Assembly (NCBI GenBank): GCA_045630805.1
Contig: JAZQTO010000001.1
Coordinates: 624-64,623, forward strand
DNA: 64,000 nt
Direction: 5' to 3'
DNA from: Paludibacteraceae bacterium
Lineage (GTDB): Bacteria > Bacteroidota > Bacteroidia > Bacteroidales > Paludibacteraceae
Both the position numbers and the translations under genes were made by a program. Position 1 is the first letter of the stretch. Each line of letters opens with the position of its first letter. The notes below the pieces were generated by a model. The model worked only from the letters and a program-made list of their open reading frames with translations. It was not told where the DNA came from and ran no database searches. Below, piece after piece: positions 38,037-63,340 of the stretch.

Positions 38037-38044
38037 TAGATATG

Positions 38045-38075: not shown

Positions 38076-38121
38076 GTAGCGGGACCCAGGATTGAACTGG
38101 GGACCTCATGATTATGAATCA
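38071..38121. repeat. attL: displaced 3' half of tRNA(CAU)
   Basis: Exact copy of 47321-47371. The match to the tRNA stops after the anticodon-arm sequence. Confidence 0.9.
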
Positions 38122-40135: not shown

Positions 40136-40694
40136 ACGTTTGAAATTTTAAGATTGTTAATATAAATGCACAAAAAAAGTGTGAACTTTTGCAAATATTA
40201 GTTCTTTCGGGCATCCACTCCCATACTCTCCAATATATACAGAAAGTCCACACCAAAGGTGCGAACATTCGCGATATTATAGGAAGAGTACTTTACAATG
40301 TTGTGGATGATTGAAAGAATCCCTTAATAAAGCAAATGCTTTATATGTTTATGTAGTTGTTGTTTATTTTACCATAGGCAGTTGTCGTTTGATTTGTGGT
40401 GCAAAGATACTATAAAAATCTGACATGAGCAAATAAAAATCAAAGAAAGAGAGCATTTTCCCTCTTTCCCTGATTAAATGTAATATAGAAACTTATACTA
40501 TTTCAAATTCTTTTTTATCGTTGAACCGTATTTATACTGATATGGGGTGGACTTCGCAGCGTGTAAATGGGGCAAAGTTGATGATGAAAGGAAGGAACTA
40601 TCATCAAAGGCACAAATAATCTTAATACTCTGATAGATATTTGTAATTATATCAATGGCAAAGATTAACAATAAGGAAGACATAACCGCTTTCC

Positions 40695-41984
40695 TTATTG
40701 TTTGTTTATCAATTTATTAATGTATCGATGGATAGTACTTTTACTAATTTTAATCCCTTTTTCCTTCAGTATATTTACATTCTCACGCACAGACTTTGTA
40801 ATGTCACAATGTTGTAACACTAATTGTTCCGTTAAAGACCCCTGTACCTTCTTACTTGCTGATTTCAAGTTAATTTCCCCCTTCTGTGAAGGGTCAATCT
40901 TAGTCTTTTGCTTGTTCTTGTACCCGCTAATATCTGCCTGTTGTACCCCTATAGCAATATCAACTATTTCCTGCCATAGCATTGGATTCTCCTTATCATC
41001 ATGCTCCATAGTGAATTGATATTCACATACTAAGCAAAATAAAAGATGTTCATCCGTAATAATATATCCCTCGTTTAACCATATTTTCCTTATAAGACAA
41101 CCATTCCTAAATAGTGTGTGTCTTCGATGTCCTATTTTTGTTTTTTTGATGATATGTTTACCACTTGCATCTCTTTCCCATTTACGTTGTATTGTAGCAT
41201 AGTCTTCATCCAATAGAGCAAATCTTATTCCATTTACTTCTTGATTATAGTCTACGATGGATTCCGTAATATGTTGATAATTTTCTTTATATTTATCAAT
41301 AAGTTTGTTATAATTTAGTGATTTTAAGTCATTTAAGAAGTCATTGCTAAGACTTAGAGTTACCTGTCCCATAGCATTAAAATGATTCTTCTCTTTTATA
41401 TCTTTATTTGTCTTGGGACACAAGTTCGTCTCGTCTAATTTGATTGGTGTAAACACATTGTCTGATATATAATCCTCGTAATCATCTAATTGAATGTTGC
41501 TTCCATTAAGGTACTGTACACCTGACCTGCAAGAATTATCGAACTTTATAGTAGGAAATACTTGTTGGATTTGTCTACTTCTTCTGTCGTACTCTGCTTG
41601 GTATTGTTCAAGATTCTCAATTTTCTCATTATATAAATATACAATGTGGTACTTCATCTGCTCATTAGAATGTCTGTACGAGGTATATAAGTACGATGGT
41701 CTGTCTTTTTGTGGCATTTCGAAGAAGAAATTGGAAGGTGTAATAGATTTTTCTTCATCAATATCGAATACAAGGAGGTGTGAATAAGCGAAGTTCTCCT
41801 TCTTTTTCTCCTGAAATCCTAACTCATTATTCATTGATGTAAGATTACATGAACAGATACCGTAACCATTACGAATAAGTCTTCTGAGGTCTTTGACATC
41901 TGTTATTTCACTTTTAATTAATTTAATTGTGTTGTAAGTTTTTGGTTTACTTTCATAATTTGCTTTACTAATTGTTATGTGCAT
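40695..41984 (-). CDS. Primase/replication-initiation-like protein (AEP prim-pol fold suspected)
   Basis: LLVFDIDEE fits the DxD motif I of archaeo-eukaryotic primases. KYHIVYLY fits the His-containing motif II. An extremely AT-rich 440-bp region lies upstream. The C-terminus has an HTH-like segment (KSTIHRYINKL). Confidence 0.5.
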   Translation of the reverse strand: MHITISKANYESKPKTYNTIKLIKSEITDVKDLRRLIRNGYGICSCNLTSMNNELGFQEKKKENFAYSHLLVFDIDEEKSITPSNFFFEMPQKDRPSYLYTSYRHSNEQMKYHIVYLYNEKIENLEQYQAEYDRRSRQIQQVFPTIKFDNSCRSGVQYLNGSNIQLDDYEDYISDNVFTPIKLDETNLCPKTNKDIKEKNHFNAMGQVTLSLSNDFLNDLKSLNYNKLIDKYKENYQHITESIVDYNQEVNGIRFALLDEDYATIQRKWERDASGKHIIKKTKIGHRRHTLFRNGCLIRKIWLNEGYIITDEHLLFCLVCEYQFTMEHDDKENPMLWQEIVDIAIGVQQADISGYKNKQKTKIDPSQKGEINLKSASKKVQGSLTEQLVLQHCDITKSVRENVNILKEKGIKISKSTIHRYINKLINKQ

Positions 41985-42427
41985 ATATTAGTTTTTTAAT
42001 GTTGCTCAACAATATCGCTGAGTACATCCAAATATAGCAACTTTTAAATTAAAAAAATAAAGTAAAAAAACACATTTAAAATAATTAAATAAAATATATT
42101 AAAAAAAATACACCTTCTTATATATAAATAAAAAATACAAATATTTTTCTTTATAATGTATTGATGAACAGAGGATTATATGTAATTATTCAACAATAAT
42201 TAATTTAAAACAAACATCAAATATACACGAATAAGACTGTCAGATATGTTATTTTTTTATACCTTCCTACCTCATTTCTACCGCAAAGACCGTGTGAAAC
42301 CCACCCCAAAACTTAGGGGGGGGCGGTAGTATAGATAGCATTCCCCTTGTTGGACAAAAAAATTTTTCAGAAAATTTTTATTTTTTTTAAAAGGTAAACT
42401 ATTTATATTAAACAAACTAAATAAACT

Positions 42428-42592
42428 ATGAGAGCATATAGAGAATTATCCGACTTAACGAAGCAAAAAATAAGCAATGGTATGAAGAAATATCACGCAA
42501 ATAAGACCGTAGCGGAGCAACACAGAACAAGACAAAATCAATCAATGAAAATGAAGGAGTATTGGTCGAATATTCCCTCGAAGAGCGTTTAA
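42428..42592 (+). CDS. Small (54-aa) basic protein with a NUMOD3-like motif
   Basis: The ORF is shorter than the shortest entry in the ORF track. MRAYRELSDLTKQKISNGMKKYHANK resembles the NUMOD3 DNA-binding repeat as I recall it. Confidence 0.3.
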   Translation: MRAYRELSDLTKQKISNGMKKYHANKTVAEQHRTRQNQSMKMKEYWSNIPSKSV

Positions 42593-42601
42593 AAAAAAGC
42601 A

Positions 42602-43876
42602 CTATTTAAGTGCTTTCCTTTGATGACTATTTAACATCTCAGATATGAAGTCAGTTGTTTTCTCCATTAAATTATTCGTTATGGATTTCAAGTATACCTG
42701 AGTTGTTGTTATGTTTTTGTGTCCGAGTAACATCATTAATTGTTCGGCAGGAATATTATATTCAACCGAATATGCAGCGAAGGTATGTCGAATATTATAT
42801 GTGGTAAATGGTTCAATATCCAATTCTCTACAAATTAATCTAATGCCCTTATTAATTTTTTTAAGTATATCGCTTCGTTTATATGATTTTTCTTGCTCTG
42901 TCATCTCCTGAGCATAGAATGGTAATATATACGCATTAGGTTTCTTGGGGTTAATTACACCATATTTTAATAAAAGCGTTCTAAGTTCTGTAGTAAAAGG
43001 TATACCAACATTAGTATCTACCCGTTCCGTTTTGGCTCGTACAAACGTAATTATGTCCCCTTTGATAGAACGGTTCGTTAGTGATAAAATATCTGCCATA
43101 TTCGCTCCACACATCGCGAAGGACAACCTAATAAAATCATGTGCAAATTGCGTTAATTTCTCTGTTGGCGTATATTCCAAAACCTTGCACCATACTTCAA
43201 TATCTAACGCTCGTTTGCTTCGTTCTACTTGCTTTATCCTAACTTTCATAAACGGATTTTCTTGGATTATGTTGTTCTCTACAGCATATTGAAATAACGC
43301 CTTCAACCCTCTCAAATACATACCTAAAGTATTTGGGGATATTTCTTGAAAGTGTGTTGTTCTATATTGCTTTTTAATATAATTTACCAAACTTCCTACT
43401 ATTTCAGGCGTTATATCCTGAACTGTTAGCAAAGAGTTATACTTTTTAACCCAATTAACAGCAGTAGCGTAACTTTCTATCGTGTTCGCTTTACATTGTT
43501 TTTCTGCACGATACATATCCAATAAGGATTCTACTTGAACTCGCTCTGTCGTTACAATTTTTCCGTTAACTTTTTCATCGTAAATAACCTTAAATTTGGC
43601 GAAAGAAAAATCAAGTCCAAGTTCTTCACAGATAGAATTAGCAATAGCACAATCTATTTCTGCAATTTCTAATGCCTCTCTCGTCTTCTTAAGTCTTTTA
43701 TTTTCAAATTCTTCTTTAGAAAAAATCTCTTTGCTACGGGTTGCATATATTTTGTTCTCGCGTTTGAAAGTTATTCTCAATTTGATAGAACTGTGTTGTC
43801 CTCTCTTATAAGGTTTCCATACTAAAGTTGCTTGTGCTTGAGTATACATAATATTATTTATACATTTAAATTTCAT
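42602..43876 (-). CDS. Tyrosine site-specific integrase
   Basis: C-terminal catalytic region with RHTFA, LLGH..ITTTQVY (His and Tyr nucleophile) and an R...ALD box. The N-terminus has a SAM-like DNA-binding domain. Confidence 0.9.
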   Translation of the reverse strand: MKFKCINNIMYTQAQATLVWKPYKRGQHSSIKLRITFKRENKIYATRSKEIFSKEEFENKRLKKTREALEIAEIDCAIANSICEELGLDFSFAKFKVIYDEKVNGKIVTTERVQVESLLDMYRAEKQCKANTIESYATAVNWVKKYNSLLTVQDITPEIVGSLVNYIKKQYRTTHFQEISPNTLGMYLRGLKALFQYAVENNIIQENPFMKVRIKQVERSKRALDIEVWCKVLEYTPTEKLTQFAHDFIRLSFAMCGANMADILSLTNRSIKGDIITFVRAKTERVDTNVGIPFTTELRTLLLKYGVINPKKPNAYILPFYAQEMTEQEKSYKRSDILKKINKGIRLICRELDIEPFTTYNIRHTFAAYSVEYNIPAEQLMMLLGHKNITTTQVYLKSITNNLMEKTTDFISEMLNSHQRKALK

Positions 43877-43883
43877 TCTATAT

Positions 43884-44396
43884 TTATGCTACGAGTTGCA
43901 GACTTCCATTCTTCAATCCTTGATAAACCTTTTTGGCGAATTGAACCGAAATTAAATCGTCTATATATGCTCCTTCTGTAGAGAAATCTATCGGCAATTC
44001 AACAACTTCCAAGTTGTAATCATTTATTTCATTCTCGGCAATCGGATGATGAAAACTATAATCGTGTATCTTGTAGTACAAATAATATTCATTGAACACT
44101 TCCTCTAAGCGTTCGTTCCATCTTCTTACTTTGTGTATCTCACACGGTTTCAATAATGCTAAGAAATAATCTTTATAACCATAATACTCATCTCTTTTCT
44201 CGGATGCTGAATCTATCGATTGTTGAATGTATTCCTTCTCCCACCATGAAGCATATCGCCTACGCTGCACAAGGTCTCGGATATTATCTCGAAAATTCTT
44301 CGCGCGTTTGTTAAAGGAGTAGATACATGCTCCTAACATCTCATAATTGACACAACCATTTTTTAGGTTTTTACTAAAAACACTTGGAGTTTTCAT
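43884..44396 (-). CDS. Hypothetical protein (170 aa)
   Basis: The ORF ends 8 nt upstream of the integrase start and is on the same strand. I recognise no domain. Confidence 0.55.
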   Translation of the reverse strand: MKTPSVFSKNLKNGCVNYEMLGACIYSFNKRAKNFRDNIRDLVQRRRYASWWEKEYIQQSIDSASEKRDEYYGYKDYFLALLKPCEIHKVRRWNERLEEVFNEYYLYYKIHDYSFHHPIAENEINDYNLEVVELPIDFSTEGAYIDDLISVQFAKKVYQGLKNGSLQLVA

Positions 44397-44843
44397 AGTT
44401 TAATAGTTGATTTTTTTAGTGTTAATAAACTCTGTGCTGACCTTCGCCACAGCACTTTGGCACGCGCCATTGCAAGTACTATTATTTGTTGCAATGTGAA
44501 TTATATTGGTTTTTATCATAGTCATAAATTTTTACTACTACTTTCGAAAAAGGCGAAAAAAAATACAGATAATGCCCAAAAGGCAAATCTGTACATCGTT
44601 AGACCGTAACAACACACTACGTCTTTTGCTGGTTTTATTCCGACAAAAAATATTTCCGCTTTTTCGAAAAGCAATGCAAAGGTACAAAAAAAATCGCACA
44701 TACACAAGAGTTTTTTGAAAAAAGTAGTGTATATAATTGCTTTTTTTATTAAACACAAATCCATAAACATCTGTTTATCAGCAATATATTATTAATACAT
44801 CTATAATTATGTCTACAATAAAAAATGAATAACTTAGAAGACT

Positions 44844-45476
44844 TTAATTAATAAATTTACATTTAATTTTTCGTAATGTCATAATTGATGTACCTGTTAT
44901 AGAACTTACATTCCTTAAACTTATTCCCTTCTTCAACAGACTAATATCTTTGGCGTATTGCTCCTTATAAGTCTCATCAGATTTCTTATAAGTCTCAGGT
45001 CTTCCCATTTTCTTGCCTTCTGCACGGCACTTTGCAATGTACTGATTGCGCCCACTTGTCATTCTTTCTACGATTGTTAGACGTTCCATACTTGCAATTT
45101 CAAGCAGAATTGTACAAATCAAACTTGCAACAGGGTTGATTTTGCCATTCACGATGGTCTCCAAATTGTAATTCTTGACATATAGGCAAATCCCCTCATC
45201 ATTCAACATCTGAATTACCTTCAACGCTTCAAGCGTATTGCGTCCCAAACGTGAAATTTCCAATACAACTACCTTATCTATGTCATGCGCGCGCACGTAT
45301 GTAATCATATCTTGAATTTCTGTACGTTCTTCAAGTGTCTTTGCACCACTTACTTTATTCGCAAACACCTTACAGATATTCCATCCTTGCTTATTGCTAT
45401 ACTCGGTAAGTTCGTTAATTTGACGATTATAATCTTGGTGATTGGTGCTCACCCTACATAGTAAAACCACGTTCAT
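44844..45476 (-). CDS. Serine recombinase (resolvase/invertase family)
   Basis: MNVVLLCRVSTNHQDYNRQ (catalytic Ser motif), LEISRLGRN, and a C-terminal HTH. An alternative start lies at 45518. Confidence 0.88.
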   Translation of the reverse strand: MNVVLLCRVSTNHQDYNRQINELTEYSNKQGWNICKVFANKVSGAKTLEERTEIQDMITYVRAHDIDKVVVLEISRLGRNTLEALKVIQMLNDEGICLYVKNYNLETIVNGKINPVASLICTILLEIASMERLTIVERMTSGRNQYIAKCRAEGKKMGRPETYKKSDETYKEQYAKDISLLKKGISLRNVSSITGTSIMTLRKIKCKFIN

Positions 45477-45510
45477 AATCTTATAATCTATTTTTAAGAG
45501 TTTGCATCTA

Positions 45511-45948
45511 TTACTCAACCCAATAAAGGGATTCCCAACGAAACGATTTCCATTTCATTCCATCTTCTACATCTATGAACGCACATGTAGCATAATCCTC
45601 ACGACTGACTCCGTTTCCATTAGTCTTCGCTGCGGCAATATTTTCTTGGATTGTACCCCATGCCTCACGAATAGAACCATCTTTTTTCTTGAATGCGAAG
45701 TGTGCGATACCATTCGCCATTTTGGTTTTCAAGTTCTCAATCATCATTGCCTTGCCAACCGCCATAATAGCATCTTGGGTACGGTCAAGAATAGTTGCCA
45801 TGCGAGTTGCAGTCATGTTGTTAATGGTCATCATGTTCATGCCTGTGGTGCTGATAGTTGCAAGAGTTGTCATAATTGTATGTTGTTTTTTGGTTAATAT
45901 TCTTATTGTTGAGTCATCCATGTTGGAATGTATTTTGGTTGCCCCCAA
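45511..45948 (-). CDS. Hypothetical protein, DUF2693/SH3-barrel-like C-terminus
   Basis: FAFKKKDGSIREAWGT... resembles a motif common in Bacteroidales mobile elements (from memory). The Met/Thr-rich N-terminus makes the true start uncertain. Confidence 0.4.
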   Translation of the reverse strand: MGATKIHSNMDDSTIRILTKKQHTIMTTLATISTTGMNMMTINNMTATRMATILDRTQDAIMAVGKAMMIENLKTKMANGIAHFAFKKKDGSIREAWGTIQENIAAAKTNGNGVSREDYATCAFIDVEDGMKWKSFRWESLYWVE

Positions 45949-46112
45949 CCATTCAATTGGTATATTCTACGGTACGCCTGTTCTGCGGTGTCGCAATTCT
46001 CTACTTTTCGACTACTTGAAGAACGTCCATCCTCGCTTACATATTCAACCTGCCAAATCCCCCACTTGTTATACGAGCGTCCAAAATGATATGTTCCAAC
46101 TGTTCTAATCAT
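45903..46112 (-). CDS. Hypothetical small protein (69 aa)
   Basis: ORF preceded by a minus-strand TACCTTTG box ('gcaaaggtac' at ~46168). No domain recognised. Confidence 0.4.
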   Translation of the reverse strand: MIRTVGTYHFGRSYNKWGIWQVEYVSEDGRSSSSRKVENCDTAEQAYRRIYQLNGWGQPKYIPTWMTQQ

Positions 46113-46300
46113 AATTTTTGTTTTTTGTGTAATGATAAATCACATGTTATTTTTAAATGTGATGCAAAGGTACACATTTTTTCTGACATGTGCAAATATT
46201 TTTACGAAAAAATGCAAAAATAAATCACTTTTTGTGATTTATGTTGTATATTTGAAAAAAAAGTAGTAATTTTGCCGTGATTTTTAACATCACATACAAC

Positions 46301-46657
46301 ATGAAGGAATATTATAAGAAAAATCTTACGCATGACGATTTGTGCGTAAAACAACTGTTAAAGGCAAAAGGGATGACGATAGCAGAACTTGCAGAGCGAA
46401 TTGGAATGGCACGTGAAGCATTATCAAGAGTTCTATCGGGTGGAAATCCTCAATATTCAACATTGGCAGCGGTGGCAGAGGCACTCGATGTGTCAGTTCC
46501 TGAACTATTCAAGAAACCTGAGCAAGATAAGCAAAAAGATTTGTATGGTATTCTTGTTTATAAAGGAGAACCATTTGAAATAAACTGTCAGGTAGATTTA
46601 CATAATCTACTACAGGAGATATATGATGATAATAGAAAAGTATTAGACAAAGAATAA
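46301..46657 (+). CDS. XRE-family HTH transcriptional regulator
   Basis: LLKAKGMTIAELAERIGMAREALSRVLSGGNPQYSTLAAVAEALDVSVPELF. The ATG at 46301 follows the box 'agtaattttg'. Confidence 0.85.
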   Translation: MKEYYKKNLTHDDLCVKQLLKAKGMTIAELAERIGMAREALSRVLSGGNPQYSTLAAVAEALDVSVPELFKKPEQDKQKDLYGILVYKGEPFEINCQVDLHNLLQEIYDDNRKVLDKE

Positions 46658-46658
46658 T

Positions 46659-47243
46659 ATGCAAGAGTTTTTAAAGGAGTTAATTCGGATTGAAATTAAC
46701 GATAAGGAGAAATGTTTTAATGGTTATTATTCTGCTGATGCATATACGAAATATATCAATGAATTATATTCTACAGCAGATATGACCGCACTAACTAATG
46801 AACTTTATTTGTTCGCAACAGAAAAGCAATTGGAAGATTATATGGTAATGCTAGATGCATATCTTCCTATGTATCTTGAGACGGTGCAAAATATGCAACA
46901 TGACGCAATGATTAGTCCATATCTACAAGAAGAAGCAGATTGGTATCAAACTCTATACGAAATTCGCAATGCTAAAGAATTTTACTACAATAAATTTTTA
47001 GAAATTCTAAATTATGAAAAGCAAGAAAAAAGAGAGATAGTAACTCAAGAAGATAATAATTCTCTTGGAGAATATATCAGTTATGAAGAACTTATTGCAA
47101 AATACAACTTTAAAGGAGTAAAATCTGTTAAGGATAAAAAATGGAGAGAAAAACATAATTTTTACCCATGCAAACAAGAAGGAAAAGGTTGCGCACTTCG
47201 CATAAGTGTAAGTCTATTAGAAGAGTGGTTAGAAGGAAAATAA
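46659..47243 (+). CDS. Hypothetical protein, possible excisionase-like C-terminus
   Basis: Starts 1 nt after the XRE stop codon. The C-terminal ...GCALRISVSLLEEWLEG resembles MerR/Xis-type HTH endings. This is a weak call. Confidence 0.45.
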   Translation: MQEFLKELIRIEINDKEKCFNGYYSADAYTKYINELYSTADMTALTNELYLFATEKQLEDYMVMLDAYLPMYLETVQNMQHDAMISPYLQEEADWYQTLYEIRNAKEFYYNKFLEILNYEKQEKREIVTQEDNNSLGEYISYEELIAKYNFKGVKSVKDKKWREKHNFYPCKQEGKGCALRISVSLLEEWLEGK

Positions 47244-47326
47244 GAAAAATGTTGGTGGTTTTGTTGGTGGTTGAATAAAAAAATCAGACATTCAGGGATT
47301 TACCTAAGTGTCTGATTTCTTTTTTG

Positions 47327-47400
47327 TAGCGGGACCCAGGATTGAACTGGGGACCTCATGATTATGAATCATGCGCTCTAACCAGCTGAGCTATCCCGCC
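47327..47400 (-). tRNA. tRNA with CAU anticodon (elongator Met or Ile2), integration target
   Basis: Minus strand: GGCGGGA-TA-GCTC..GAGC, anticodon stem CATGA/TCATG with loop TTCATAA, T arm CCCAG-TTCAATC-CTGGG, acceptor 3' strand TCCCGCT plus A73. The anticodon stem has fewer than 3 G-C pairs, so this is not an initiator tRNA. Confidence 0.85.
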
Positions 47401-53157: not shown

Positions 53158-53180
53158 TCACGCCTCTTGCCTATAGCCTA

Positions 53181-53213
53181 AAAAGAGCATTTCGGGTGGA
53201 AATGCTCTTTTTT
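53181..53213 (+). terminator. Intrinsic terminator after malQ
   Basis: Hairpin gagcatttc-gggtg-gaaatgctc followed by tttttt. Confidence 0.85.
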
Positions 53214-53839
53214 CTTGCCTCTAATCAGGCACTTCGTGCTCTCCAATTTGCGCAATCTTAAAGTGCAACTTTAAATTTGCGCAGTTATAAAGTGGTACTT
53301 TCCAAAATGGAAATACCCACTTCAGTATCCGAGTAATCCTCGGCAACTCAGAAAAATCGGAAATCCCGATTTTTCTCCTAAATGGCATTTACTTCATACT
53401 ATTTCCTTCTTTTATATCGCTACTGCGCAGCCTTCCCTTCGCCTTTAAACATTAAACTGTAGATCTTGGGTCAGTCCACTAAAACTAAAAAAGAGTATTT
53501 CACTCTTTTTTATGTGAAAGTGTGATAAGGTGAGGTTTCTTACGGTTTGTATATTGTTTTCTTGAGTGCTAGGGAGAATTATTGTCCTCTATACCAATTC
53601 TATAGATATGCACAGGCACGCGCAAGGTGTGCCTGTTTGTGTTTTATCTCTAGCTTCTACACTCCATAATATAGCGTCCCTTAAAAGAATCTTTCATACA
53701 TAGTTTTTGGCGTATATTTATGTATTAGAGTACTGAAAGTGCACTAAAGTGCTTATTAAATAACATATTGGCATATTGATAATCAATACGTTAAACATAT
53801 TGTGTACTATAGTTCCTTGTAGATGTTTTGAATTTATAC

Positions 53840-53847
53840 TACCTTTG
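53840..53847 (+). promoter_or_regulatory. Bacteroidota -7 promoter box (TACCTTTG) for the defence-island operon
   Basis: 'tatactacctttgcaac' lies 26 nt upstream of the ATG at 53873. Confidence 0.55.
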
Positions 53848-53872
53848 CAACAAATTTTTAGAATACTTATAT

Positions 53873-54121
53873 ATGAAAACAAAAGTAAGATTGAAAAAAG
53901 ATGTCGGAATTGTTCTTCGTGGACTAAGGCATCAAAAATCAGTTGAAGCTGATGTAAAACTTACTCAAAACGACATTGCTAACGAATCAGGATTGAGTTT
54001 AAGGTATTACAACAAGCTTGAAAATGGGATGTCTATGCCTACAATAGATGCATTGTTAAAAATTGCATGCATATACGATATGACACTAAGTGAATTATGC
54101 AAATTAATAGAAGAATGTTAA
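53873..54121 (+). CDS. XRE-family HTH regulator
   Basis: LTQNDIANESGLSLRYYNKLENGMSMPTIDALLKIACIYDMTLSEL. Confidence 0.85.
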   Translation: MKTKVRLKKDVGIVLRGLRHQKSVEADVKLTQNDIANESGLSLRYYNKLENGMSMPTIDALLKIACIYDMTLSELCKLIEEC

Positions 54122-54141
54122 ACTTATAAATATACATAACT

Positions 54142-56217
54142 ATGACACAAGATGAAAAATTGTTTTTGAATGAATTCATGGAAATCGTTCAAATGTCAGC
54201 GGAAGAAAATCAAACTTCTTGCGAAACTGAACTTACAAAATCAATTATTGAATATATCGTAGCTAATGGCGAAGCTTTAGCACCTGAAATATGCGAATGT
54301 GCTAGTGATCCCGCAATTGAGAAATACTCAGGAAGATATAAGATAAACGCATTTGACTTTAGTGAGTCATCTGGCATACTTGATTTGTTCGGTACCGTAC
54401 ACTACGAGGGACAAAATCCTACACTAGCCAAAAGTACAGCCCAAAGAACCGTTAATGATCTTTTAAAATTCTTGTATGCTGCAGTAGAGGGAAACGAAGC
54501 GAAAAGAATCCGAACCACAAATCCAGATGCTGCAGACGTTATGGATATGATTAAAGAGGAATACACTAAAAAGAAATTTGATCTTGTTCGTATCTTTGTT
54601 CTCTCTAATGGTTTTTCTAATCCAAATGAAGTACTAGATATCTCCGATGGCGAAATCACACCTAAAGGACACCCTTTGACTGTAGAATACCATTTCTGGG
54701 ATATGAATGAAGTTCTAAAGGCAGAGAAAGCCAAACAAAATAATCAAGAAATGCTCATAGAGCTTGATTCTGAGTATCAGACCAAGTTAGATTGTATTGA
54801 GGTGTTAGATGAGGTTAATAATATAAAGTCATATCTAACAATTATGCCAGCTTTGACTTTAGCTAAAATATACCATAAATACAAAGTAAAACTTATTGAC
54901 AAAAACGTACGTAACTTCTTAGGAGGCAAAATCAAAGTCAACAAAAAGATGGCAGATACAATTAGTGAGGAACCAGAATTATTTTTCTCCTACAACAATG
55001 GTATTTCTAGTACAGCAGCCTCAGTAGAGGTGAAGGTCGATGAAGATAGCGGAAAAAGATATATTACAAAAATTCGCAATTGGCATATTGTAAACGGAGG
55101 ACAAACTACATCAACGATTTATAACGCGTACAGAAAATCAAAAGATAGTATCGAGAATTTATCGAAAGCATTTGTATCTGTTAAGATTTCTGAACTTCCA
55201 CCTAAATTAGAAAGTAAGCAACCTGTACTAATCGGTAATATTGCTAAATACGCTAACTCCCAAAATTCCATCAAGGAATCTGATCTTTCTGCTAATGCAC
55301 CATTTATGTTACAATTAGAAACGATGTCTCGAAAAGAATGGACTCCTGTCAAACATACTTTGTGGTATTTCGAGCGCTTGCGTGGACAATTCCTTACAGA
55401 GAAAGGCGAAGTAGGTGGTGCTGGTACTAATAAAGCAAAGAAATTTGAAGAAGAGCGCCCACAAAATCAAAGATTCAACAAGATGGATGTGGCAAAACTT
55501 GAGATGGCATGGATGGATAAGCCTTTTGAAGCTTGTAAAGGTGGTGAGGTTTGTTTTGATAAATTCTGGAAAATAATAAAAGACCAAACATTCGTTGTTG
55601 ATGAAAATTATTTCCACGAAATAATTGCTAAATCTATTATATATAAAAAGGTTGACGCATTACTTAAAATGGAAGGTAATAAAGGACATGCCTCTATTAT
55701 TGCAAACTACACATTAGCATTATTAGCTCTACGTTCTCAAAGACGTTTAGATCTTAAATACATTTGGGAAAATCAACATGTACAGAGTGATCTTGTTGAA
55801 GTTATTAAAGAATGTATAAAGGCTGTATCAGACCACATTCGTTTGATTGGTAGTGATAGTGGCAAGAACCCACAGACAGAATCTAAAAAGCCAGAATTCT
55901 GGAATAATATTCAAAACAAGACTCTTGCAATCACAATTCCTGATAGCGTACTTGTTGATGATAATGCTAATTTGCAAGTAACAGAAGAACAAAAAGAGGT
56001 TATAAATAAGAGTATTGATAGAGGTGCAGAATTCTGGAAGAAACTATCAGAATGGAATAAGACAGAAGGAAAAGGTGTTTTCTCAATTATGGAGAAAAAG
56101 AAGATAGACCATATTGCTGTAGCTATCGAACGAGGTTCTGAAATTAAATTGAAATTAGCAGAAGATTGTGAACGCATTCTTCGTTCTGCACAAGACTTAG
56201 GGTTTGGTGATAATTGA
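54142..56217 (+). CDS. AIPR-family (abortive infection phage resistance) protein
   Basis: 691 aa. The central segment NVRNFLGGKIKVNKKMADTI..EPELFFSYNNGIS matches the AIPR core as I recall it (Pfam PF10592). Confidence 0.75.
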   Translation: MTQDEKLFLNEFMEIVQMSAEENQTSCETELTKSIIEYIVANGEALAPEICECASDPAIEKYSGRYKINAFDFSESSGILDLFGTVHYEGQNPTLAKSTAQRTVNDLLKFLYAAVEGNEAKRIRTTNPDAADVMDMIKEEYTKKKFDLVRIFVLSNGFSNPNEVLDISDGEITPKGHPLTVEYHFWDMNEVLKAEKAKQNNQEMLIELDSEYQTKLDCIEVLDEVNNIKSYLTIMPALTLAKIYHKYKVKLIDKNVRNFLGGKIKVNKKMADTISEEPELFFSYNNGISSTAASVEVKVDEDSGKRYITKIRNWHIVNGGQTTSTIYNAYRKSKDSIENLSKAFVSVKISELPPKLESKQPVLIGNIAKYANSQNSIKESDLSANAPFMLQLETMSRKEWTPVKHTLWYFERLRGQFLTEKGEVGGAGTNKAKKFEEERPQNQRFNKMDVAKLEMAWMDKPFEACKGGEVCFDKFWKIIKDQTFVVDENYFHEIIAKSIIYKKVDALLKMEGNKGHASIIANYTLALLALRSQRRLDLKYIWENQHVQSDLVEVIKECIKAVSDHIRLIGSDSGKNPQTESKKPEFWNNIQNKTLAITIPDSVLVDDNANLQVTEEQKEVINKSIDRGAEFWKKLSEWNKTEGKGVFSIMEKKKIDHIAVAIERGSEIKLKLAEDCERILRSAQDLGFGDN

Positions 56218-56228
56218 TCGATATTAAA

Positions 56229-57242
56229 ATGGGTAAAAAATCAAAAAAAATAACAGTATTTGAAGCTTTTGCAGGATATGGAGGAGCATCATTTGGACTT
56301 AAGCGGTCTGGTATAAAACATAAAGTAGTTGGTTTCTCGGAAATAGATTCAAGCGCAATTCAGATTCTGGAAACGAATTTTCCAAAAATCAAAAATTATG
56401 GTGATATAAAAACCATTGCGGATGAATTAGAGAATGATAGTGCGTACTTGCCTGATTTTGATATGTTCACAGGCGGTTTTCCTTGCCAACCATTCTCCTC
56501 TGCTGGGTTACAATTAGGAGAAGAAGACAAATTAGGAAGAGGTACTTTGATATACGAAATCATACGCATTTGTAGAATAAAAAAGCCTCAATATATTTTA
56601 CTAGAGAATGTCAAAGGATTCAAATCTGCTAAATTCAAGAAAACTCGTGATGCATTAACCGCAGGATTGGGAAATGAGTATGACATAAGAATGGAAGTCT
56701 TAAATACTATGAATTATGGTATACCCCAAAATAGAGAGCGATTGTGGATTTTTGCATATAAGGGAAAACTACCTGCAGAATTCAGTTTAATACCACCTAT
56801 GGAAGAAGAGTATACCCCTCCTAGATTGCATGAATTTTTAGATCAAGAACCTCCAGCATCTGTTTATTTAACAGACGCACAAGTAAGGCGTTTTAGAGAT
56901 TCGCATGCAAAACATGGATGTCATAATTTTAGTGTTAATGAACCATTGTGTTTTGATGTATATAATCATAAAATTAAAACTAATGGTTTGTGTAATACCA
57001 TAACAGAACCTAGTCATAACATCACACGTATCATTGAACCAAGAAGGAATGGAGTATTAAGAATCCGTAAGCTATCAATAGATGAACAATTTAGGTTGAT
57101 GGGATTTAAAATGACCCCTAATAAAAAAGAGATAAAATTTCCAGAAACCTTGAACTATACTCAAATTTCTGCTCGTGCAGGAAATGGATGGGATGTTAAC
57201 CTTGTTGGTATATTAATTAAACATATATTTAAACAACTATGA
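56229..57242 (+). CDS. dcm: DNA (cytosine-5)-methyltransferase
   Basis: Motif I FAGYGG, IV GGFPCQPFS, VI ENVKGF, VIII QNRERLW, X GNGWDV. Confidence 0.93.
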   Translation: MGKKSKKITVFEAFAGYGGASFGLKRSGIKHKVVGFSEIDSSAIQILETNFPKIKNYGDIKTIADELENDSAYLPDFDMFTGGFPCQPFSSAGLQLGEEDKLGRGTLIYEIIRICRIKKPQYILLENVKGFKSAKFKKTRDALTAGLGNEYDIRMEVLNTMNYGIPQNRERLWIFAYKGKLPAEFSLIPPMEEEYTPPRLHEFLDQEPPASVYLTDAQVRRFRDSHAKHGCHNFSVNEPLCFDVYNHKIKTNGLCNTITEPSHNITRIIEPRRNGVLRIRKLSIDEQFRLMGFKMTPNKKEIKFPETLNYTQISARAGNGWDVNLVGILIKHIFKQL

Positions 57243-57820
57243 AATTAGATTTAGCATCTTTTGCTTTTGGTTTTGAACTAATCGAAGGCACTGGTACGCC
57301 TCCATGGGGTACTTCATTTGGACAAAATAGTCCAGAATATAAATTTGTGCGCGAAGGTTTTGAAGAAATCATCGTAGGTATGTTGTATAATGCTGTAGAT
57401 TTAAGGCAAGTATTTCTTCCTTTGGGTAAAGGTGGAAATATTGTTAAAGGATCAGAAACGTCCATCGTACAATTAGCTTCTGTATTTAATAACGTTTATG
57501 TAAACGGAGAAAAAATCGACTACCCTTTTACTATGGTTATCTTGAAGGAAGATTCTGATTCTCACTATGGAAGAAGGCATTTAAAGTACAGCCCTAAAAT
57601 TTCATATCGAGCGTATAGTGGTAGGGTATTCTCTAATAATGAATTTGTTTCTATGGTACGCCAGCACTTTGGGTTAGCAGAAAAAGCATGTTGGTTTATT
57701 GATGAAATAAAAATAGAAAATCAAGATACTTTGCATATGAAAGCTATTTTTGTAAATAAAGATACTTTCGAAGTTTACCAAAATAGTAAAGAGAGGAAAC
57801 AGAAGTGGTCAAATAGATAA
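57239..57820 (+). CDS. Hypothetical protein (193 aa), translationally coupled to the methyltransferase
   Basis: ATGA start/stop overlap with dcm. No domain recognised. Its position fits a cognate nuclease or another effector. Confidence 0.6.
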   Translation: MKLDLASFAFGFELIEGTGTPPWGTSFGQNSPEYKFVREGFEEIIVGMLYNAVDLRQVFLPLGKGGNIVKGSETSIVQLASVFNNVYVNGEKIDYPFTMVILKEDSDSHYGRRHLKYSPKISYRAYSGRVFSNNEFVSMVRQHFGLAEKACWFIDEIKIENQDTLHMKAIFVNKDTFEVYQNSKERKQKWSNR

Positions 57821-57841
57821 CTTAAATTCTGTAATAAGAGT

Positions 57842-59017
57842 ATGGATAAAATATATGCATATATTGATGAATATGGAGCATATGGATTTGATTACGATAA
57901 AGATAATGTATCAACCCATTTCATTATTACTGCGGCAATAGTAAATGAAAGAGAAAAAGAATATGTAATAACATCCATTGATGAAATAAGAAAAAGATAT
58001 TTTCAAAAGGGTGAAATTAAATCGTCTAGTATCGGGAAAAACCATAGTCGTCGGAAAATTATTTTATCAAAAATTTTAGAACTACCGATAAGATACATTA
58101 TTTTGGTAGTGGATAAAGAAATGATTTTTGAAAATGGAGGATTAAAGAAATCTAAATCTGTTTTTTACAAATTTCTTAATGAACATCTGTATTCTACTTT
58201 GCGAAATAGTTATAGCAAAATAGAAATCTGTGCAGATGAACTTGGAAAAAATGATTTTATTGATTCTTTTATATCATATGTAAAAAGAAAAGCCAAAGCA
58301 ACACAATTGTCTCTATTTGACGAAAGCCATTTCCATCTTGCAAATAGTAAACAAGATGTTTTGATCCAAGTCGCAGATTTAATATCTGGTTCAGTTGCAT
58401 ATGATTTTGATCGTAAGAAAATGTTACTTGCAGAAGGGAATAATTATGTGGATTTTATAAATCATAAAGTAAATATGATTAAACATTTTCCAAGAAATTT
58501 TGAGGATATGTTAGAAGATACTAAAACATTAAAATCAGGTGTATACGATCCTCAAATAATGGAAATATGTTATCGTAAAGCGATGTCTGTTTTAAATGAA
58601 TTAGAAAATAAATCGGATGATAATTGTAAAATGCAATATCTTGTTCTTAATTATTTATTATTTAGATTTAAGAGTAACTCAACAAGGTCTTATATTTCAA
58701 CAAAAGAACTGAAAAATTTTTTACTAGATAATGGTTTTGTAATAAAGACGGATCAAACTTTTAGAAACAAAATTATAGGACATTTGCGTGATAAGGGAGT
58801 TATATTAGCGAGTTCATCAAAAGGTTATCGAATACCTAAAGGCCGTGGTGATATCGAAAATTATATCAACCATGATAAAAGTGTCATATTACCAATGATT
58901 TTTCGGTTAAAAATATGTTATGATGAAGTGCTGAGTGGTTCAAATGGTGAGATTGATTTATTGAATGAAGAAAAAAATAAACATTTTAGAAATATATTAC
59001 AAGCTCCGAGCAAATAA
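57842..59017 (+). CDS. DUF3800-domain protein
   Basis: N-terminal IYAYIDEYGAYGFD resembles the DUF3800 D-E-x-G signature, with a later QVADLISG. The C-terminal ~150 aa are unassigned. Confidence 0.65.
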   Translation: MDKIYAYIDEYGAYGFDYDKDNVSTHFIITAAIVNEREKEYVITSIDEIRKRYFQKGEIKSSSIGKNHSRRKIILSKILELPIRYIILVVDKEMIFENGGLKKSKSVFYKFLNEHLYSTLRNSYSKIEICADELGKNDFIDSFISYVKRKAKATQLSLFDESHFHLANSKQDVLIQVADLISGSVAYDFDRKKMLLAEGNNYVDFINHKVNMIKHFPRNFEDMLEDTKTLKSGVYDPQIMEICYRKAMSVLNELENKSDDNCKMQYLVLNYLLFRFKSNSTRSYISTKELKNFLLDNGFVIKTDQTFRNKIIGHLRDKGVILASSSKGYRIPKGRGDIENYINHDKSVILPMIFRLKICYDEVLSGSNGEIDLLNEEKNKHFRNILQAPSK

Positions 59018-59355: not shown

Positions 59356-60516
59356 ATGAGTGAATATATAATACCAACGCTGCCCTTATCCTACGATTTG
59401 GAAACTAAGGAGATTCTGCGCCAAGTAAATCGTGCTAACCGTAAGTTGGCAGAACTTAAGGGTGTTGCATTGACTATACCTAACGAGCAGATTTTAATAA
59501 GCTCGCTAACGCTTCAAGAAGCCAAAGATAGTTCCGAAGTTGAAAATATCGTCACCACACAAGATGACTTATATCGTGCTGGTATGGAAATACCATATGA
59601 TATCATCAGTGCAGCGACTAAAGAAGTTCTTCTATACAGAGAAGCTATTTCTGAAGGATTCCATCTTGTGCGAAACAAAAATATCCTTACTCTAAATGAT
59701 ATTAAACGCATTCAGCAGATATTAGAAGCAAATTCTGCGGGATTTAGAAGCACTCCTGGTACTCAACTAAAACGCAGTTCTGATGGAGTTGTAGTATACA
59801 CTCCACCTCAAGACAAAGTAGTCATCGAAAAGTATATGGCCAACTTAGAGCAATTCATCAATGATGAGCAATTGTCTTCGTTAGATCCACTTATCAAGAT
59901 GGCTATCATTCATCATCAATTTGAGAGTATCCATCCATTCTATGATGGCAATGGCAGAACAGGACGTATTATCAATATTCTATATCTAGTTATTGCAGAT
60001 TTGTTGGAGCTTCCAATATTATATCTTAGTCGATACATCACGCATAATAAACAAGAATATTATCAACTAATTCAAGCTATCAGAGATAAGAATACCGATA
60101 ATGCAAAACAGTGGGAAGAATGGATATTATTCATGTTAAAAGGTGTTGAGCAAACGGCACAAGATACAATCAATCTGATCAAGCATATAGGCACATTGAT
60201 GGATAGGTTCAAACGAACTCTAAGACCTGTCTTTGGAACTAAATATAACCATGAATTATTGAATGGTTTATTTTATCATCCGTACACCAAAATTGAACAC
60301 ATTGAGAAAAACCTACAAGTAACTCGACAGACTGCATCACGCTATTTGAATACGATAGTTGAGCTCGGATTACTGCAAAAACAAAAGAAAGGCAAGGAGA
60401 ATTACTATGTAAATGTGCTATTAGTTGACCTATTTTTATCATATAGTGAAAGTCCCAAGCATACTGAAGCAGATAGCATAGAATCTGTTCATGGTAAAAA
60501 TAACGAAAAAATGTAA
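59356..60516 (+). CDS. Fic-family protein (AMPylase type) with an N-terminal inhibitory motif and a C-terminal wHTH
   Basis: Active-site loop HPFYDGNGRTGR. SSEVEN fits the (S/T)xxxE(G/N) auto-inhibition motif. The C-terminal QVTRQTASRYLNTIVELGLL is a winged-helix-like segment. Confidence 0.9.
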   Translation: MSEYIIPTLPLSYDLETKEILRQVNRANRKLAELKGVALTIPNEQILISSLTLQEAKDSSEVENIVTTQDDLYRAGMEIPYDIISAATKEVLLYREAISEGFHLVRNKNILTLNDIKRIQQILEANSAGFRSTPGTQLKRSSDGVVVYTPPQDKVVIEKYMANLEQFINDEQLSSLDPLIKMAIIHHQFESIHPFYDGNGRTGRIINILYLVIADLLELPILYLSRYITHNKQEYYQLIQAIRDKNTDNAKQWEEWILFMLKGVEQTAQDTINLIKHIGTLMDRFKRTLRPVFGTKYNHELLNGLFYHPYTKIEHIEKNLQVTRQTASRYLNTIVELGLLQKQKKGKENYYVNVLLVDLFLSYSESPKHTEADSIESVHGKNNEKM

Positions 60517-61073
60517 CATATTTATGGGGTCATGTTAAAAAAACGCGAAAAATTTAACACGTTCTACCTGTCATGTTATAAAATGTAAGATTTTAATGCA
60601 CATACTCTTCAATGAAGCATTATGCAAAGTCCAGAGGACAGATACGGGACATTTATAGGACAGATATGGGACATATTCGGGACATTTATAGGACATTTAT
60701 GGAACAAATGTGGGACGTTTTTAGAGTTTCCAATTCTCCTATTACTCTCTAAAACCCAACTCCCCCATACCCCATAAAAACCAATTCATATCCACTTTTC
60801 TCTCCAATATGACAAGAAAAATCACCCCATCATCCAACAAAGATACAAGCCAACAACTCCGACAACTGCTGATTGATATGATATAATCCCTCCATCTCCA
60901 CACCGAGAAGCAAATTTATAATTACCTATCCCCTCCTCACATACCCACACATATCCTCACACACCTACACATACTCACACATACCTAATATACTTACACA
61001 TAGCTTGCTCCTTTTTTCTCACAAAATGAAGTGAACCCCAAAAGTTAGACAAAAAACTTTTAGGTTTTTATTT

Positions 61074-61598
61074 ATGTATAAGAAACATTCATTAGAAGAA
61101 CGGCTGCTTGCTGTTAAAAAATGTCTAGAAGGTCTTAGTCCTAGATGTGTAGGTCGTCAATTAGGAATTAATTCTAGTTACATATCAGAATGGTTGTATA
61201 AATACCAACGTGAAGGAAGTAAAGGTTTAGAAAAACGTCCTAATATACGTGCGAATTTTGAAGAAAAATGCAAAATTGTTTGCGCATATGCTGAAAAAGG
61301 TATACCTTTGCATCGTGTTAGTTCAGACTACCATGTATCTCAGTCTTCGATATGCTTATGGACACGCATCTATCGTCAGGGAGGTTATGGTGCTCTGCGC
61401 ACGATGACTAAACCAGATCTAAGTATCAAAAGTATGGGACGTCCAAAGAAACAAGAGCCACAAACTGAGTTAGAACGTTTACGTTACGAAAATGAGTGGT
61501 TACGTGCAGAGGTTGCACTATTAAAAAAAGTGAGGGCTTTAATGGACGAAAAGGAGCGCCAACTACGAGAGATTGGGCGCAAGCCATCCAAACATTAA
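61074..61598 (+). CDS. IS3 transposase OrfA (HTH plus leucine zipper)
   Basis: HTH_Tnp-like N-terminus and a C-terminal coiled coil (LERLRYENEWLRAEVALLKK). Confidence 0.88.
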   Translation: MYKKHSLEERLLAVKKCLEGLSPRCVGRQLGINSSYISEWLYKYQREGSKGLEKRPNIRANFEEKCKIVCAYAEKGIPLHRVSSDYHVSQSSICLWTRIYRQGGYGALRTMTKPDLSIKSMGRPKKQEPQTELERLRYENEWLRAEVALLKKVRALMDEKERQLREIGRKPSKH

Positions 61599-62419
61599 AG
61601 CCAGAACATAACCTTGATATATTGCTACAAGTCAAGGGGATGGCTCGTGCTACATACTATTATAGCATAAAGAATCGTAAAGATAAATATGCCCTATTGC
61701 GTAAATCAATAGCACGTATTTTTGCAGAGCATAATGGCCGTTATGGTTATCGACGTGTATATGAGCAGTTGCGCGCTGAAGGATATACTATTAATCATAA
61801 AACTATTGCCAAACTAATGGCAGAAATGGACTTATATGCTAGGCGACGAAAGGTACATTATCGCTCATATAAGGGGGATGTCGGACGAATAGCTCCCAAT
61901 CTATTGCAACGTAATTTTATGACGGATGGCCCCAATCAAAAATGGGCTACCGATATTACACAAATAGACATACAAGGTAGGAAGTGTTACTTGTCACCAA
62001 TATTAGATATGTGGAATGGTGAGATTATTAGTTATACTATATCTGACAGTCCTAACATGAAGATGGTTACTGATATGCTACAGAAAGCTTTCCGCAAACA
62101 GGTTCCTACCAAAGGTATGTTGATGCATTCTGATCAAGGGTGGCATTATCAACATATTAAATATCGAGAATTACTCCAACACTACGGCATCATACAAAGT
62201 ATGTCACGCAAAGGTAATTGTTTGGATAATGCCATGATGGAAAACTTTTTTGGCATAATGAAGAATGAGTTACTATATCCTAACAAATGGGAAGATATAG
62301 ACGAATTTAAACAAGCACTTAAGAAATATATCAAATATTACAATCATAAACGTATCAAACTAAAATTAAAAATGAGTCCAGTACTTTACCGAACTCACTT
62401 TCAAAATATAGTTAACTAA
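61496..62419 (+). CDS. IS3 transposase OrfB (DDE/rve integrase core), expressed by -1 frameshift as OrfAB
   Basis: rve-domain blocks WATDITQ (D), HSDQGWHY (D), and CLDNAMMENFFG..K.E (E). The slippery sequence AAAAAAAG lies at 61523-61530 in the overlap. Confidence 0.88.
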   Translation: MVTCRGCTIKKSEGFNGRKGAPTTRDWAQAIQTLKPEHNLDILLQVKGMARATYYYSIKNRKDKYALLRKSIARIFAEHNGRYGYRRVYEQLRAEGYTINHKTIAKLMAEMDLYARRRKVHYRSYKGDVGRIAPNLLQRNFMTDGPNQKWATDITQIDIQGRKCYLSPILDMWNGEIISYTISDSPNMKMVTDMLQKAFRKQVPTKGMLMHSDQGWHYQHIKYRELLQHYGIIQSMSRKGNCLDNAMMENFFGIMKNELLYPNKWEDIDEFKQALKKYIKYYNHKRIKLKLKMSPVLYRTHFQNIVN

Positions 62420-63126
62420 ATTTATTAATCTGTCCAACTTTTTGGGGTCATCTCAAAAAAAGCAGCAAACTCAACAAAAAGGAGCAAGTCAAAAAGCAGT
62501 TGTTCGGAAATTCCGAACAACTGCATTGGATGGCAAAACATACCAAGTAGATTCAGGTGCCTATGTACATAAACATGGCATTTCATGTACATACCTCGCA
62601 AAAAATATATATAGTAGATAATATTGAGCAACCATCCGGAATTTCCGGATAGTTCAAACTGAAGGTTCTCGCCAAGTGTCACGCGAGGGGAAGCACTATA
62701 GTCTGCGAAATAGTAATCCTGTCTCAACCTCCACGCATCAGATGACAAAAGAGGTGTAGATCGTAGGGGATAGATGCAGGTCAACCGGTGACAATTTGTC
62801 ACCAGTTACTATTCGGGAAAATGGACAAACAAAATTGGTTATAGGTTATAGGCGAAGGGTACTCGAATAATATTCGAGATAATAAACAAACAAAACAGGG
62901 AATCAGTACACACAGATGTGTGAATGTGTGAATGTGTGAATGAGACGAGAGGCGTTTTAGGCGATGAGGCGGGGAATAGAAGAGACGAGCAAGGGCTCGT
63001 CTCTTCTGGTGTAGAGTGTAAGGTGTAAAGGCGGGCGCTTGCAGCGCAGTTTAGAGGACGCGCTGAAAGCGCTACAGTTTAGGGTTTAGAGGCGAGAAAT
63101 GCTCGGCGAATTAACGCCGAGCACTT

Positions 63127-63230
63127 GACAGACGGAGGAATACAGGATACTCGGCGGACCACCGCCGAGGGCAGGACAGACGGAGGGAGCACAGGATACT
63201 CGGCGGAACACCACCGAGGGCAGGACAGAC
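63127..63230. repeat. 48/49-bp tandem repeat, 2.1 copies, each unit carrying a hairpin
   Basis: Unit 1: gacagacggaggaatacaggatactcggcggaccaccgccgagggcag. Unit 2: gacagacggagggagcacaggatactcggcggaacaccaccgagggcag. Then a partial gacagac. Each full unit has an internal ctcggcgg/ccgccgag-type stem: the stem is exact in unit 1 and weaker in unit 2 (ccaccgag). Confidence 0.9.
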
Positions 63231-63276
63231 TAGTGGGAATGAAAAAGATACACCAGAGTGGGGCGCTGGAGGCGCA

Positions 63277-63340
63277 GTGTAGAGTGTAGAGTGTAGAGTG
63301 TAGGGTGTAGAGTGTAGAGTGTAAGGGTGTAGGGTGTAGA
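63277..63340. repeat. Degenerate heptamer array (gtgtaga/gtgtagg/gtgtaag), ~9 units
   Basis: Read directly from the sequence. The same word family occurs in reverse orientation at 12425-12460 and again at 63010-63028. Confidence 0.9.

Follow-up and report, generated by a model that had tools for sequence, protein, structure and literature searches.

The window analysed here, a stretch of 64,000 nucleotides (nt) of contig JAZQTO010000001.1 from a Paludibacteraceae bacterium, contains at positions 53873-59017 a unit of five open reading frames (ORFs), all on the + strand, that is best read as a composite of a four-gene cassette resembling a restriction-modification (R-M) system and a separately travelling DUF3800 gene. 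From 5′ to 3′ the unit encodes an XRE/HTH_3 regulator of 82 amino acids (aa) (53873-54121; Pfam HTH_3, E 1.4e-11), a 691-aa AIPR protein (54142-56217; AIPR_N, E 1.5e-18, and AIPR, E 1.9e-78), a 5-methylcytosine (m5C) DNA methyltransferase (MTase) that is 337 aa long if translated from its ATG codon (56229-57242; DNA_methylase, E 7e-54) or 342 aa from a TTG codon at 56214, a protein of 193 aa (57239-57820), and a DUF3800 protein of 391 aa (57842-59017; PF12686, E 8e-13, 49.8 bits against a gathering cutoff of 21). The spacer between the XRE and AIPR genes is 20 nt, that between AIPR and the MTase is 11 nt from the ATG at 56229 or a 4-nt overlap from the TTG, the MTase and 193-aa genes overlap by 4 nt (ATGA), and 21 nt precede the DUF3800 gene. 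An earlier, sequence-only reading of this DNA had described the tight packing of the five genes, assigned the four domains and found the MTase complete in its canonical motifs; the ORFs and gaps agree with it, Pfam agrees for each domain, and motifs I (FAGYGG), IV (FPCQ), VI (ENV), VIII (QNRER) and X (GNGW) were seen by inspection. Its view of the locus as defensive in type is also supported.

The 193-aa protein, by contrast, had been called unrecognisable. It has no match in Pfam, NCBIfam, PADLOC or PHROGs, and sequence searches of the PDB found nothing, whether the query was the protein alone or a profile. A word-indexed search nevertheless yielded about 100 close relatives, intact cluster representatives of ~195-220 aa with 52-97% identity from Bacteroidales-type metagenomes, the alignment of which has 26 invariant columns. 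When a profile built from this alignment was scored against 1.84 billion representatives (50% clustering), 334 relatives were found; among the best 150 of them, 126 are at least 400 aa in length and carry the domain at residues 1 to ~195. These long relatives are McrB-type GTPases of 400-900 aa: AAA_5 was identified in 59 of 74, and the consensus shows the McrB motifs GxPGTGKS, EINR.N and TMNxxDQ. By homology, the 193-aa protein is a stand-alone version of the N-terminal domain (NTD) of LlaJI/McrB-like restriction subunits. The family (334 representatives at 50% clustering) is a widespread family of putative reader domains, outside Pfam and with no structural neighbour.

The N-terminal domains of McrB proteins are structurally unrelated DNA readers of the DUF3578, YTH and B3 types (PMC7680126). 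Specificity in LlaJI is determined solely by R1, a McrB-like subunit whose N-terminal half is unique and which has no catalytic centre; R1 restricts unmethylated DNA, from which m5C MTases give protection (PMC1459862). The stand-alone NTD is proposed, by analogy, to be a reader of DNA sites or of their methylation. Its AlphaFold model is confident (pLDDT 87.5, pTM 0.86), and a Foldseek search of the PDB and BFVD with this model returned no match at E<=0.001, with TM<=0.2. Three other identities were considered and set aside: a reader of the B3, YTH, DUF3578 or SRA type (no match, as far as Foldseek can tell), an HNH/His-Me nuclease built on H109, H114 and N133 (the helix histidine H143 is not conserved, and there is no structural support), and Vsr (related loci have a separate Vsr gene).

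Thirty related loci, 8 from metagenomes and 22 from species-representative genomes, were annotated by phmmer with the window proteins and compared. In every one of the 30, the NTD gene lies directly 3′ of an orthologous m5C MTase gene with a 4-nt overlap, and two architectures can be distinguished. Type A, represented by 13 loci in addition to the window and confined nearly entirely to Bacteroidales, has the order XRE-AIPR-MTase-stand-alone NTD, without McrB or McrC. Type B, represented by 17 loci of Bacteroidales, Firmicutes and Verrucomicrobia, has an MTase followed by an NTD fused to (or followed by) McrB and then by a nuclease, which may be RE_LlaJI (2e-52), McrBC (1.7e-48) or DUF2357+PDDEXK_7, and never contains AIPR. 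The window conforms to type A, as there is no McrB GTPase, McrC or Vsr anywhere in its 64 kb, and phmmer queries of it with the McrC, RE_LlaJI and PDDEXK_7 partners of the related loci gave no match. Five loci make up a B2 subtype, in which a stand-alone NTD is accompanied by a second, divergent NTD fused to McrB.

In Prevotella and Bacteroidaceae metagenome-assembled genomes (loci L008, L016, L018, L019 and L020; for example L019:5382-14854), some eight genes form a conserved cluster. In order, it encodes proteins of 659 and 286 aa without a Pfam match, DUF6339, an m5C MTase, a stand-alone NTD, an NTD-McrB-like protein of ~630 aa and DUF2357+PDDEXK_7, so that there are two reader paralogues for one methylase; the L008 version also has Vsr. 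Among viral contigs (IMG/VR), the only NTD relative was a distant, fused one of LlaJI type, in a locus (L134:2875-7484) that consists of an MTase-sized ORF (330 aa), an NTD-fused protein of 735 aa with 33% identity in the NTD, and an ORF of 485 aa. The unit had no blastn match among PLSDB plasmids.

Comparative sequence data indicate that the stand-alone NTD is functional and not a relic, because its dN/dS ratio of 0.04-0.08 (in pairs with unsaturated dS) is the same as that of AIPR and the MTase, which amounts to strong purifying selection. The three proteins also co-diverge (Mantel r 0.82-0.95). If the NTD were instead the decaying remnant of a LlaJI-type R1 gene, left behind without function when XRE-AIPR recombined beside the MTase, the coincidence of the domain boundary with the end of the ORF would be accounted for, as would locus L007, where a truncated NTD copy of 135 aa is followed by a separate AAA_5 gene. 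Such a remnant is very improbable in view of the dN/dS values, of the ~100 intact cluster representatives with their 26 invariant columns, and of the stand-alone copies that are also found beside an intact NTD′-McrB-McrC set in five loci.

Restriction endonucleases (REases) are notoriously undetectable by sequence, and the stand-alone NTD might therefore be a small type II REase of novel fold that forms an ordinary R-M pair with the MTase, in which case XRE-AIPR would be an independent abortive infection (Abi) module. The ATGA coupling with the MTase gene in all 30 loci, a size typical of small REases, and five invariant residues (D4, H109, R112, K116 and N133) all fit this description. It is unlikely, however, given that 126 of the best 150 relatives are fused to a McrB GTPase and have a dedicated PD-(D/E)xK, McrC or RE_LlaJI nuclease as the next gene, that the counterpart subunit of LlaJI is a specificity subunit without a catalytic centre (PMC1459862), that Foldseek detected no nuclease fold, and that XRE-AIPR stays with the same MTase family when the NTD is absent.

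The MTase matches NCBIfam TIGR00675 (dcm), and its best relative in the PDB is M.HhaI, in the catalytic half only. Members of its family with 48-57% identity occur both in LlaJI-type loci, where the partners are RE_LlaJI or McrC, and in AIPR loci that lack an NTD. The MTases of the latter are 51-57% identical to those of type A and type B, and therefore the MTases of all three kinds of locus constitute one family. Identity of AIPR homologues to the window protein is at least 57% within the type A clade and then falls to 49% or less. At 47% identity, the locus has the order Dcm-XRE-AIPR, and at 42-43% Dcm is on the opposite strand, divergent from XRE-AIPR; the NTD is missing from both. All AIPR loci that were examined have the XRE gene immediately 5′ of AIPR, at a distance of 3-57 nt. 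XRE-AIPR and one m5C MTase family are thus linked down to 42% AIPR identity in three gene orders, which lends comparative support to the earlier suggestion that methylation provides protection against AIPR. Because a single MTase family pairs with either a LlaJI/McrBC machine or XRE-AIPR, it is suggested that AIPR takes over the function of the restriction half, and AIPR is proposed to be a methylation-sensitive effector that occupies the 'R' position and would act on DNA without the methyl mark.

In a fold search, the AlphaFold2 model of AIPR (pLDDT 83.9) produced only non-significant matches, two of them to PD-(D/E)xK-like folds (probability 0.16-0.28), and a profile search of the PDB found nothing. 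The stretch NGGQT (318-322) and residues D72 and D81 of AIPR are invariant. A HEPN Rx4-6H motif has been described for the AIPR family (PMC3506569), and AIPR/AbiU1 has been reported to contain a ParB-superfamily nuclease domain linked to R-M (PMC3632139); inspection of the N-terminal region of the window protein by eye revealed no clear Rx4-6H motif. AIPR scores 276.9 bits with the NCBIfam MzaE model (NF041935), for which the cutoff is 1050, and the AbiU model of PADLOC matches residues 180-416 of 691 only (E 1.7e-21). These are the only resemblances that NCBIfam and PADLOC give for AIPR. Neither they nor PHROGs assign the locus to a named defence system, and the sequence-only reading, which did not recognise one, is supported in this.

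The partial AbiU match, like the mosaic of XRE-AIPR and MTase-NTD blocks described below, would suit a different role for AIPR as a methylation-independent Abi toxin with XRE as its repressor. The MTase would then not be protective, and the linkage would have come about either through defence islands or because AIPR is a guard, triggered when a phage disables R-M. Against this, AIPR is linked over 42-100% identity and three gene orders to one MTase family and not to R-M in general, and both the conserved operator and the way in which XRE-AIPR is placed, as C-R would be, are like those of a controlled R-M system, so that a toxin indifferent to methylation is improbable, though less so than a relic NTD.

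In controller-regulated type II R-M systems, the C gene precedes the R gene. The window XRE protein has a weak match to the 'Control_protein' model of PADLOC (E 2.4e-4). The 294 kb of type A loci contain 16 occurrences of a palindrome, GGAAYTNNNNTTCC, all of them 61-152 nt 5′ of the XRE ATG, with one or two copies per locus. The counterpart of this palindrome in the window is the operator-like motif ACTATAGTTCCTTG (53806-53819, + strand), located 67 nt 5′ of the XRE start; the variant ACTATA(G/A)TTCCTTG occupies this -67 position in both the window and loci L031-33, and in the window it is 34 nt 5′ of the promoter box. The XRE-AIPR order and the conserved operator are reminiscent of a controlled R-M system with AIPR in the R position, and XRE is proposed to act as a C-protein-like controller of AIPR.

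Bacteroidetes use promoter elements other than those of the sigma-70 type; a scan for sigma-70 promoters (34 sites versus 37.9 expected) was uninformative, the consensus not being of Bacteroidetes type. The earlier reading placed a single promoter box at 53840, and a Bacteroidetes-type -7 element, TACCTTTG (TAnnTTTG), is indeed present at 53840-53847 on the + strand, 33 nt 5′ of the XRE ATG. The claim that it is the only one did not hold, since weaker + strand matches to TAnnTTTG exist inside the unit (54591, 55759, 57340 and 57745), and a single transcript over the unit is therefore a plausible prediction only. The -7 element has an offset of -24 to -36 in L001-L006, L009 and L031-33, and is further upstream in L011 and L024 (-53 and -61); no match was found upstream of XRE in L010, L012 or L013. 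The 14-nt TATACTACCTTTGC of the XRE promoter, at 53835, is repeated at 59160 upstream of the SoFic gene. Between the 4-alpha-glucanotransferase gene and XRE there are ~700 nt (53158-53872) without a convincing ORF. This stretch holds a 15-bp palindrome, TATTGATAATCAATA (53774-53788), that is not kept in other cassettes, as well as two hairpins, one perfect with 14 bp (53180-53212) and one terminator-like (53612-53636).

The genes of the unit do not all share one history. Between the window (53873-59017) and its counterpart at L031:3019-8182, identity is 73% for XRE and 75% for AIPR, but 93% for the MTase and 94% for both the NTD and DUF3800; the dS of DUF3800 is 0.31 versus 0.80-0.88. L010 and L013 differ in the opposite sense, with identities of 96% for AIPR, 83% for the MTase and 76% for the NTD. 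The mosaic of identities between the window and L031 implies, at the level of sequence comparison, that an XRE-AIPR block and an MTase-NTD-DUF3800 block have probably been recombined.

The reading preferred here, to which a probability of roughly 0.55 is assigned, has two layers: a conserved four-gene R-M-like cassette (53806-57820), found in gut and rumen Bacteroidales, with the NTD as reader and AIPR as effector, and a separate DUF3800 accessory (57842-59017). In the first layer, the m5C MTase would mark host DNA, XRE would bind the palindromic operator just 5′ of the promoter to set the level and timing of AIPR, and AIPR, in the restriction position, would act on DNA that lacks the methyl mark. 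In systems of the LlaJI/McrB type, a reader domain of this kind would find the target site and pass it on to a motor GTPase and a nuclease of McrC type, both of which are absent here; the free NTD, presumably inherited along with the MTase, the source being an ancestor or sibling of LlaJI type, may instead report unmethylated sites to AIPR or target it to them. The second layer, DUF3800, would ride at the end of, or inside, many R-M operons as a separate accessory. The comparisons establish gene content, homology, co-occurrence, purifying selection and conservation of the operator, and from these the biochemical roles of all the parts are inferred.

Several observations weigh against this two-layer reading. 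A fold search of the PDB with the AIPR model found no significant neighbour, and the searchable literature yielded no mechanistic work on AIPR proteins, for which no biochemical activity is known. The NTD likewise has no structural neighbour, leaving analogy with the N-terminal domains of other McrB proteins as the sole ground for DNA binding. In distant loci, AIPR and this MTase family coexist without the NTD, which may therefore have no part in the action of AIPR. The mosaicism of the blocks fits two adjacent modules as well as it fits one system, and co-transcription of the unit is no more than plausible.

A bolder extension of the two-layer reading, possible but rather doubtful, would make AIPR a new class of methylation-sensitive restriction effector, able to replace the McrBC motor-nuclease beside the same m5C methylase and, in this clade, to find unmethylated sites with the help of a detachable McrB-type reader of unseen fold, while the slot after the reader would hold interchangeable second-line suicide effectors (DUF3800, TIR, Schlafen-like or a membrane protein) that are released when the restriction layer is blocked.

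The sequence-only reading had also entertained a single system of all five genes, and had proposed an analysis of co-occurrence that might show the genes to assort independently. Independent assortment was found for DUF3800 and not for the other four genes. Of 12 distinct cassette lineages, 10 have no DUF3800 gene after the NTD; among type A lineages it follows the NTD only in the window and L031-33, and in the latter the DUF3800 protein is 94% identical but the flank is different, with Mrr upstream. In other type A lineages, the slot after the NTD contains TIR_2, SLFN_AlbA_2/HATPase_c_4, an 8xMP-like membrane protein, unknown proteins, PAP2-M15 or SoFic. An alignment of window DNA with L011, made for a clean boundary of DUF3800 insertion, was too divergent to read.

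Relatives of the DUF3800 protein with 42-75% identity are located in unrelated R-M operons of both type I and type II. Those at 71-75% begin 5-10 nt after an operon of two D12 MTases, RE_AlwI and an N6_N4-MTase. The relatives at 45-47% belong to type I operons: at 47% the gene is beside an hsdS shufflon, and at 45% it is inside an operon with the order HsdM-Fic-HsdS-DUF3800-DUF4268-HsdR. When 80 metagenome loci with DUF3800 were dereplicated to 26 informative clusters, an R-M gene was found within three genes of DUF3800 in at least 17 of the 26 and adjacent to it in at least 12, counts that are lower bounds set by the query set used; N6_Mtase-HsdS-DUF3800-Fic was the largest group of neighbourhoods. 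That all five genes including DUF3800 constitute one obligate system is the least credible of the alternatives considered: the recurrence of the order in L031-33 at 94% DUF3800 identity despite a different flank, the 21-nt gap and the lack of a predicted terminator before DUF3800 would agree with it, but not the variety of genes after the NTD in other lineages or the DUF3800 relatives in unrelated R-M operons. By these sequence comparisons, DUF3800 is a separate accessory and a habitual passenger of R-M operons that assorts independently.

The residues E10, D132, Q176 and D179 of the DUF3800 protein are invariant in 41 homologues, and D9 is at least 90% conserved. An RNase-H-like fold has been predicted for DUF3800 (PMC10910872), and the protein is probably a nuclease that serves as a back-up, in the manner of abortive infection or in assistance of R-M. 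Structured RNA motifs associated with DUF3800 have been described as a feature of some members only (PMC5737381); no such Rfam motif was detected between 53000 and 61200 at E values up to 1.

Other genes share these neighbourhoods. Fic-family genes recur beside the cassettes: the SoFic gene (59356-60516) begins 338 nt after DUF3800 in the window and is also found soon after the NTD in L011 (L011:10966-12132), a gene for a 373-aa Fic protein is directly 3′ of DUF3800 in 23 metagenome loci (L064-L083), and a Fic gene lies between hsdM and hsdS in L040-43. SLFN_AlbA_2 plus HATPase_c_4 proteins are encoded after the NTD in L012 (10858-12189) and L013 (10674-12434), and after DUF3800 in other loci (for example L065:7179-8561); they seem to be a further regular companion of the R-M genes in these neighbourhoods.

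Among known systems, the McrBC-like R-M systems of the LlaJI/BsuMI type have in common with the window the MTase family, which occurs there with RE_LlaJI or McrC partners, the homology of the 193-aa protein to the N-terminal domain of the R1-like subunits, and the translational coupling of the MTase and reader genes. In contrast to them, the window has no AAA_5 GTPase domain and no McrC or LlaJI.R2 nuclease, its reader is a separate 193-aa protein whose fold matches no solved McrB or LlaJI N-terminal domain, and XRE-AIPR is present instead.

A second likeness is to C-protein-controlled type II R-M systems such as PvuII, BamHI, Esp1396I and AhdI. As in these, the window has a small HTH_3 gene directly 5′ of the putative effector and a predicted palindromic operator at a fixed distance from the promoter, and the MTase of AIPR loci may also be tandem or divergent; unlike these, the R position is occupied by a 691-aa AIPR protein and no recognisable REase. 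Neither AIPR nor the NTD matched any REase family, and neither has a significant structural neighbour in the PDB.

An AIPR-family protein is shared with MZA (mzaABCDE), MORC/Z1/AIPR and AbiU systems, and an m5C MTase is frequent in the MZA and MORC/Z1/AIPR neighbourhoods (PMC2292703, PMC9523054, PMC5608340). The window locus differs from MZA in lacking a MutL/MORC, Z1 or DUF4220 gene and in falling short of the MzaE-equivalog cutoff, and from AbiU in that the model covers only part of AIPR. Finally, abortive-infection genes are known to be embedded in R-M operons, as are PrrC in the EcoprrI hsd operon, Fic, RloC and similar genes (PMC3506569), and the DUF3800 subfamily likewise occupies internal or terminal positions in operons of the type I, type II and AIPR-Dcm kinds, where the gaps measure 3-21 nt; it differs from PrrC in having a predicted RNase-H-like fold rather than being a HEPN anticodon nuclease.

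Linkage of AIPR to Dcm, systems of the LlaJI type and accessory genes embedded in R-M operons are already known singly. The literature searched contains no report of XRE-AIPR replacing the McrBC motor and nuclease on one methylase family, of a conserved stand-alone reader protein, or of the NTD reader family, which is absent from Pfam. The cassette offers a concrete, testable setting for AIPR, which the alternation of partners around one methylase family suggests may fill the restriction half; a widespread family of putative reader domains is now defined, and a DUF3800 subfamily is flagged as one that regularly accompanies R-M operons of types I and II. These components are common in gut and rumen Bacteroidales, and systems of this kind are practical barriers to genetic manipulation and shape the flow of phages and plasmids.

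The unit lies in an AT-rich island, the G+C fraction dropping at ~53.2 kb from ~0.53 to 0.27-0.38, and its neighbours in the window are the 4-alpha-glucanotransferase gene on one side and, beyond DUF3800, SoFic and an IS3-family element (61074-62419) that forms the right-hand border of the island. In this element, an HTH_23/HTH_Tnp_1 ORF (61074-61598) overlaps an ORF for an rve integrase core (61496-62419), the layout typical of programmed frameshifting. Between SoFic and the element there are five overlapping copies of a GGACAnnTAnn-type unit with 11-nt spacing (60636-60712). Clusters of short direct repeats follow at 62753-63340, including three 45-nt repeats (63089-63230) and GTGTAGAG-type repeats with a periodicity of 14 nt (63276-63340). 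A second strongly AT-rich stretch, with a G+C fraction of 0.29-0.35, extends over 38000-47400, ends near a tRNA-Met gene (47326-47400, minus strand) and is possibly another acquired island.

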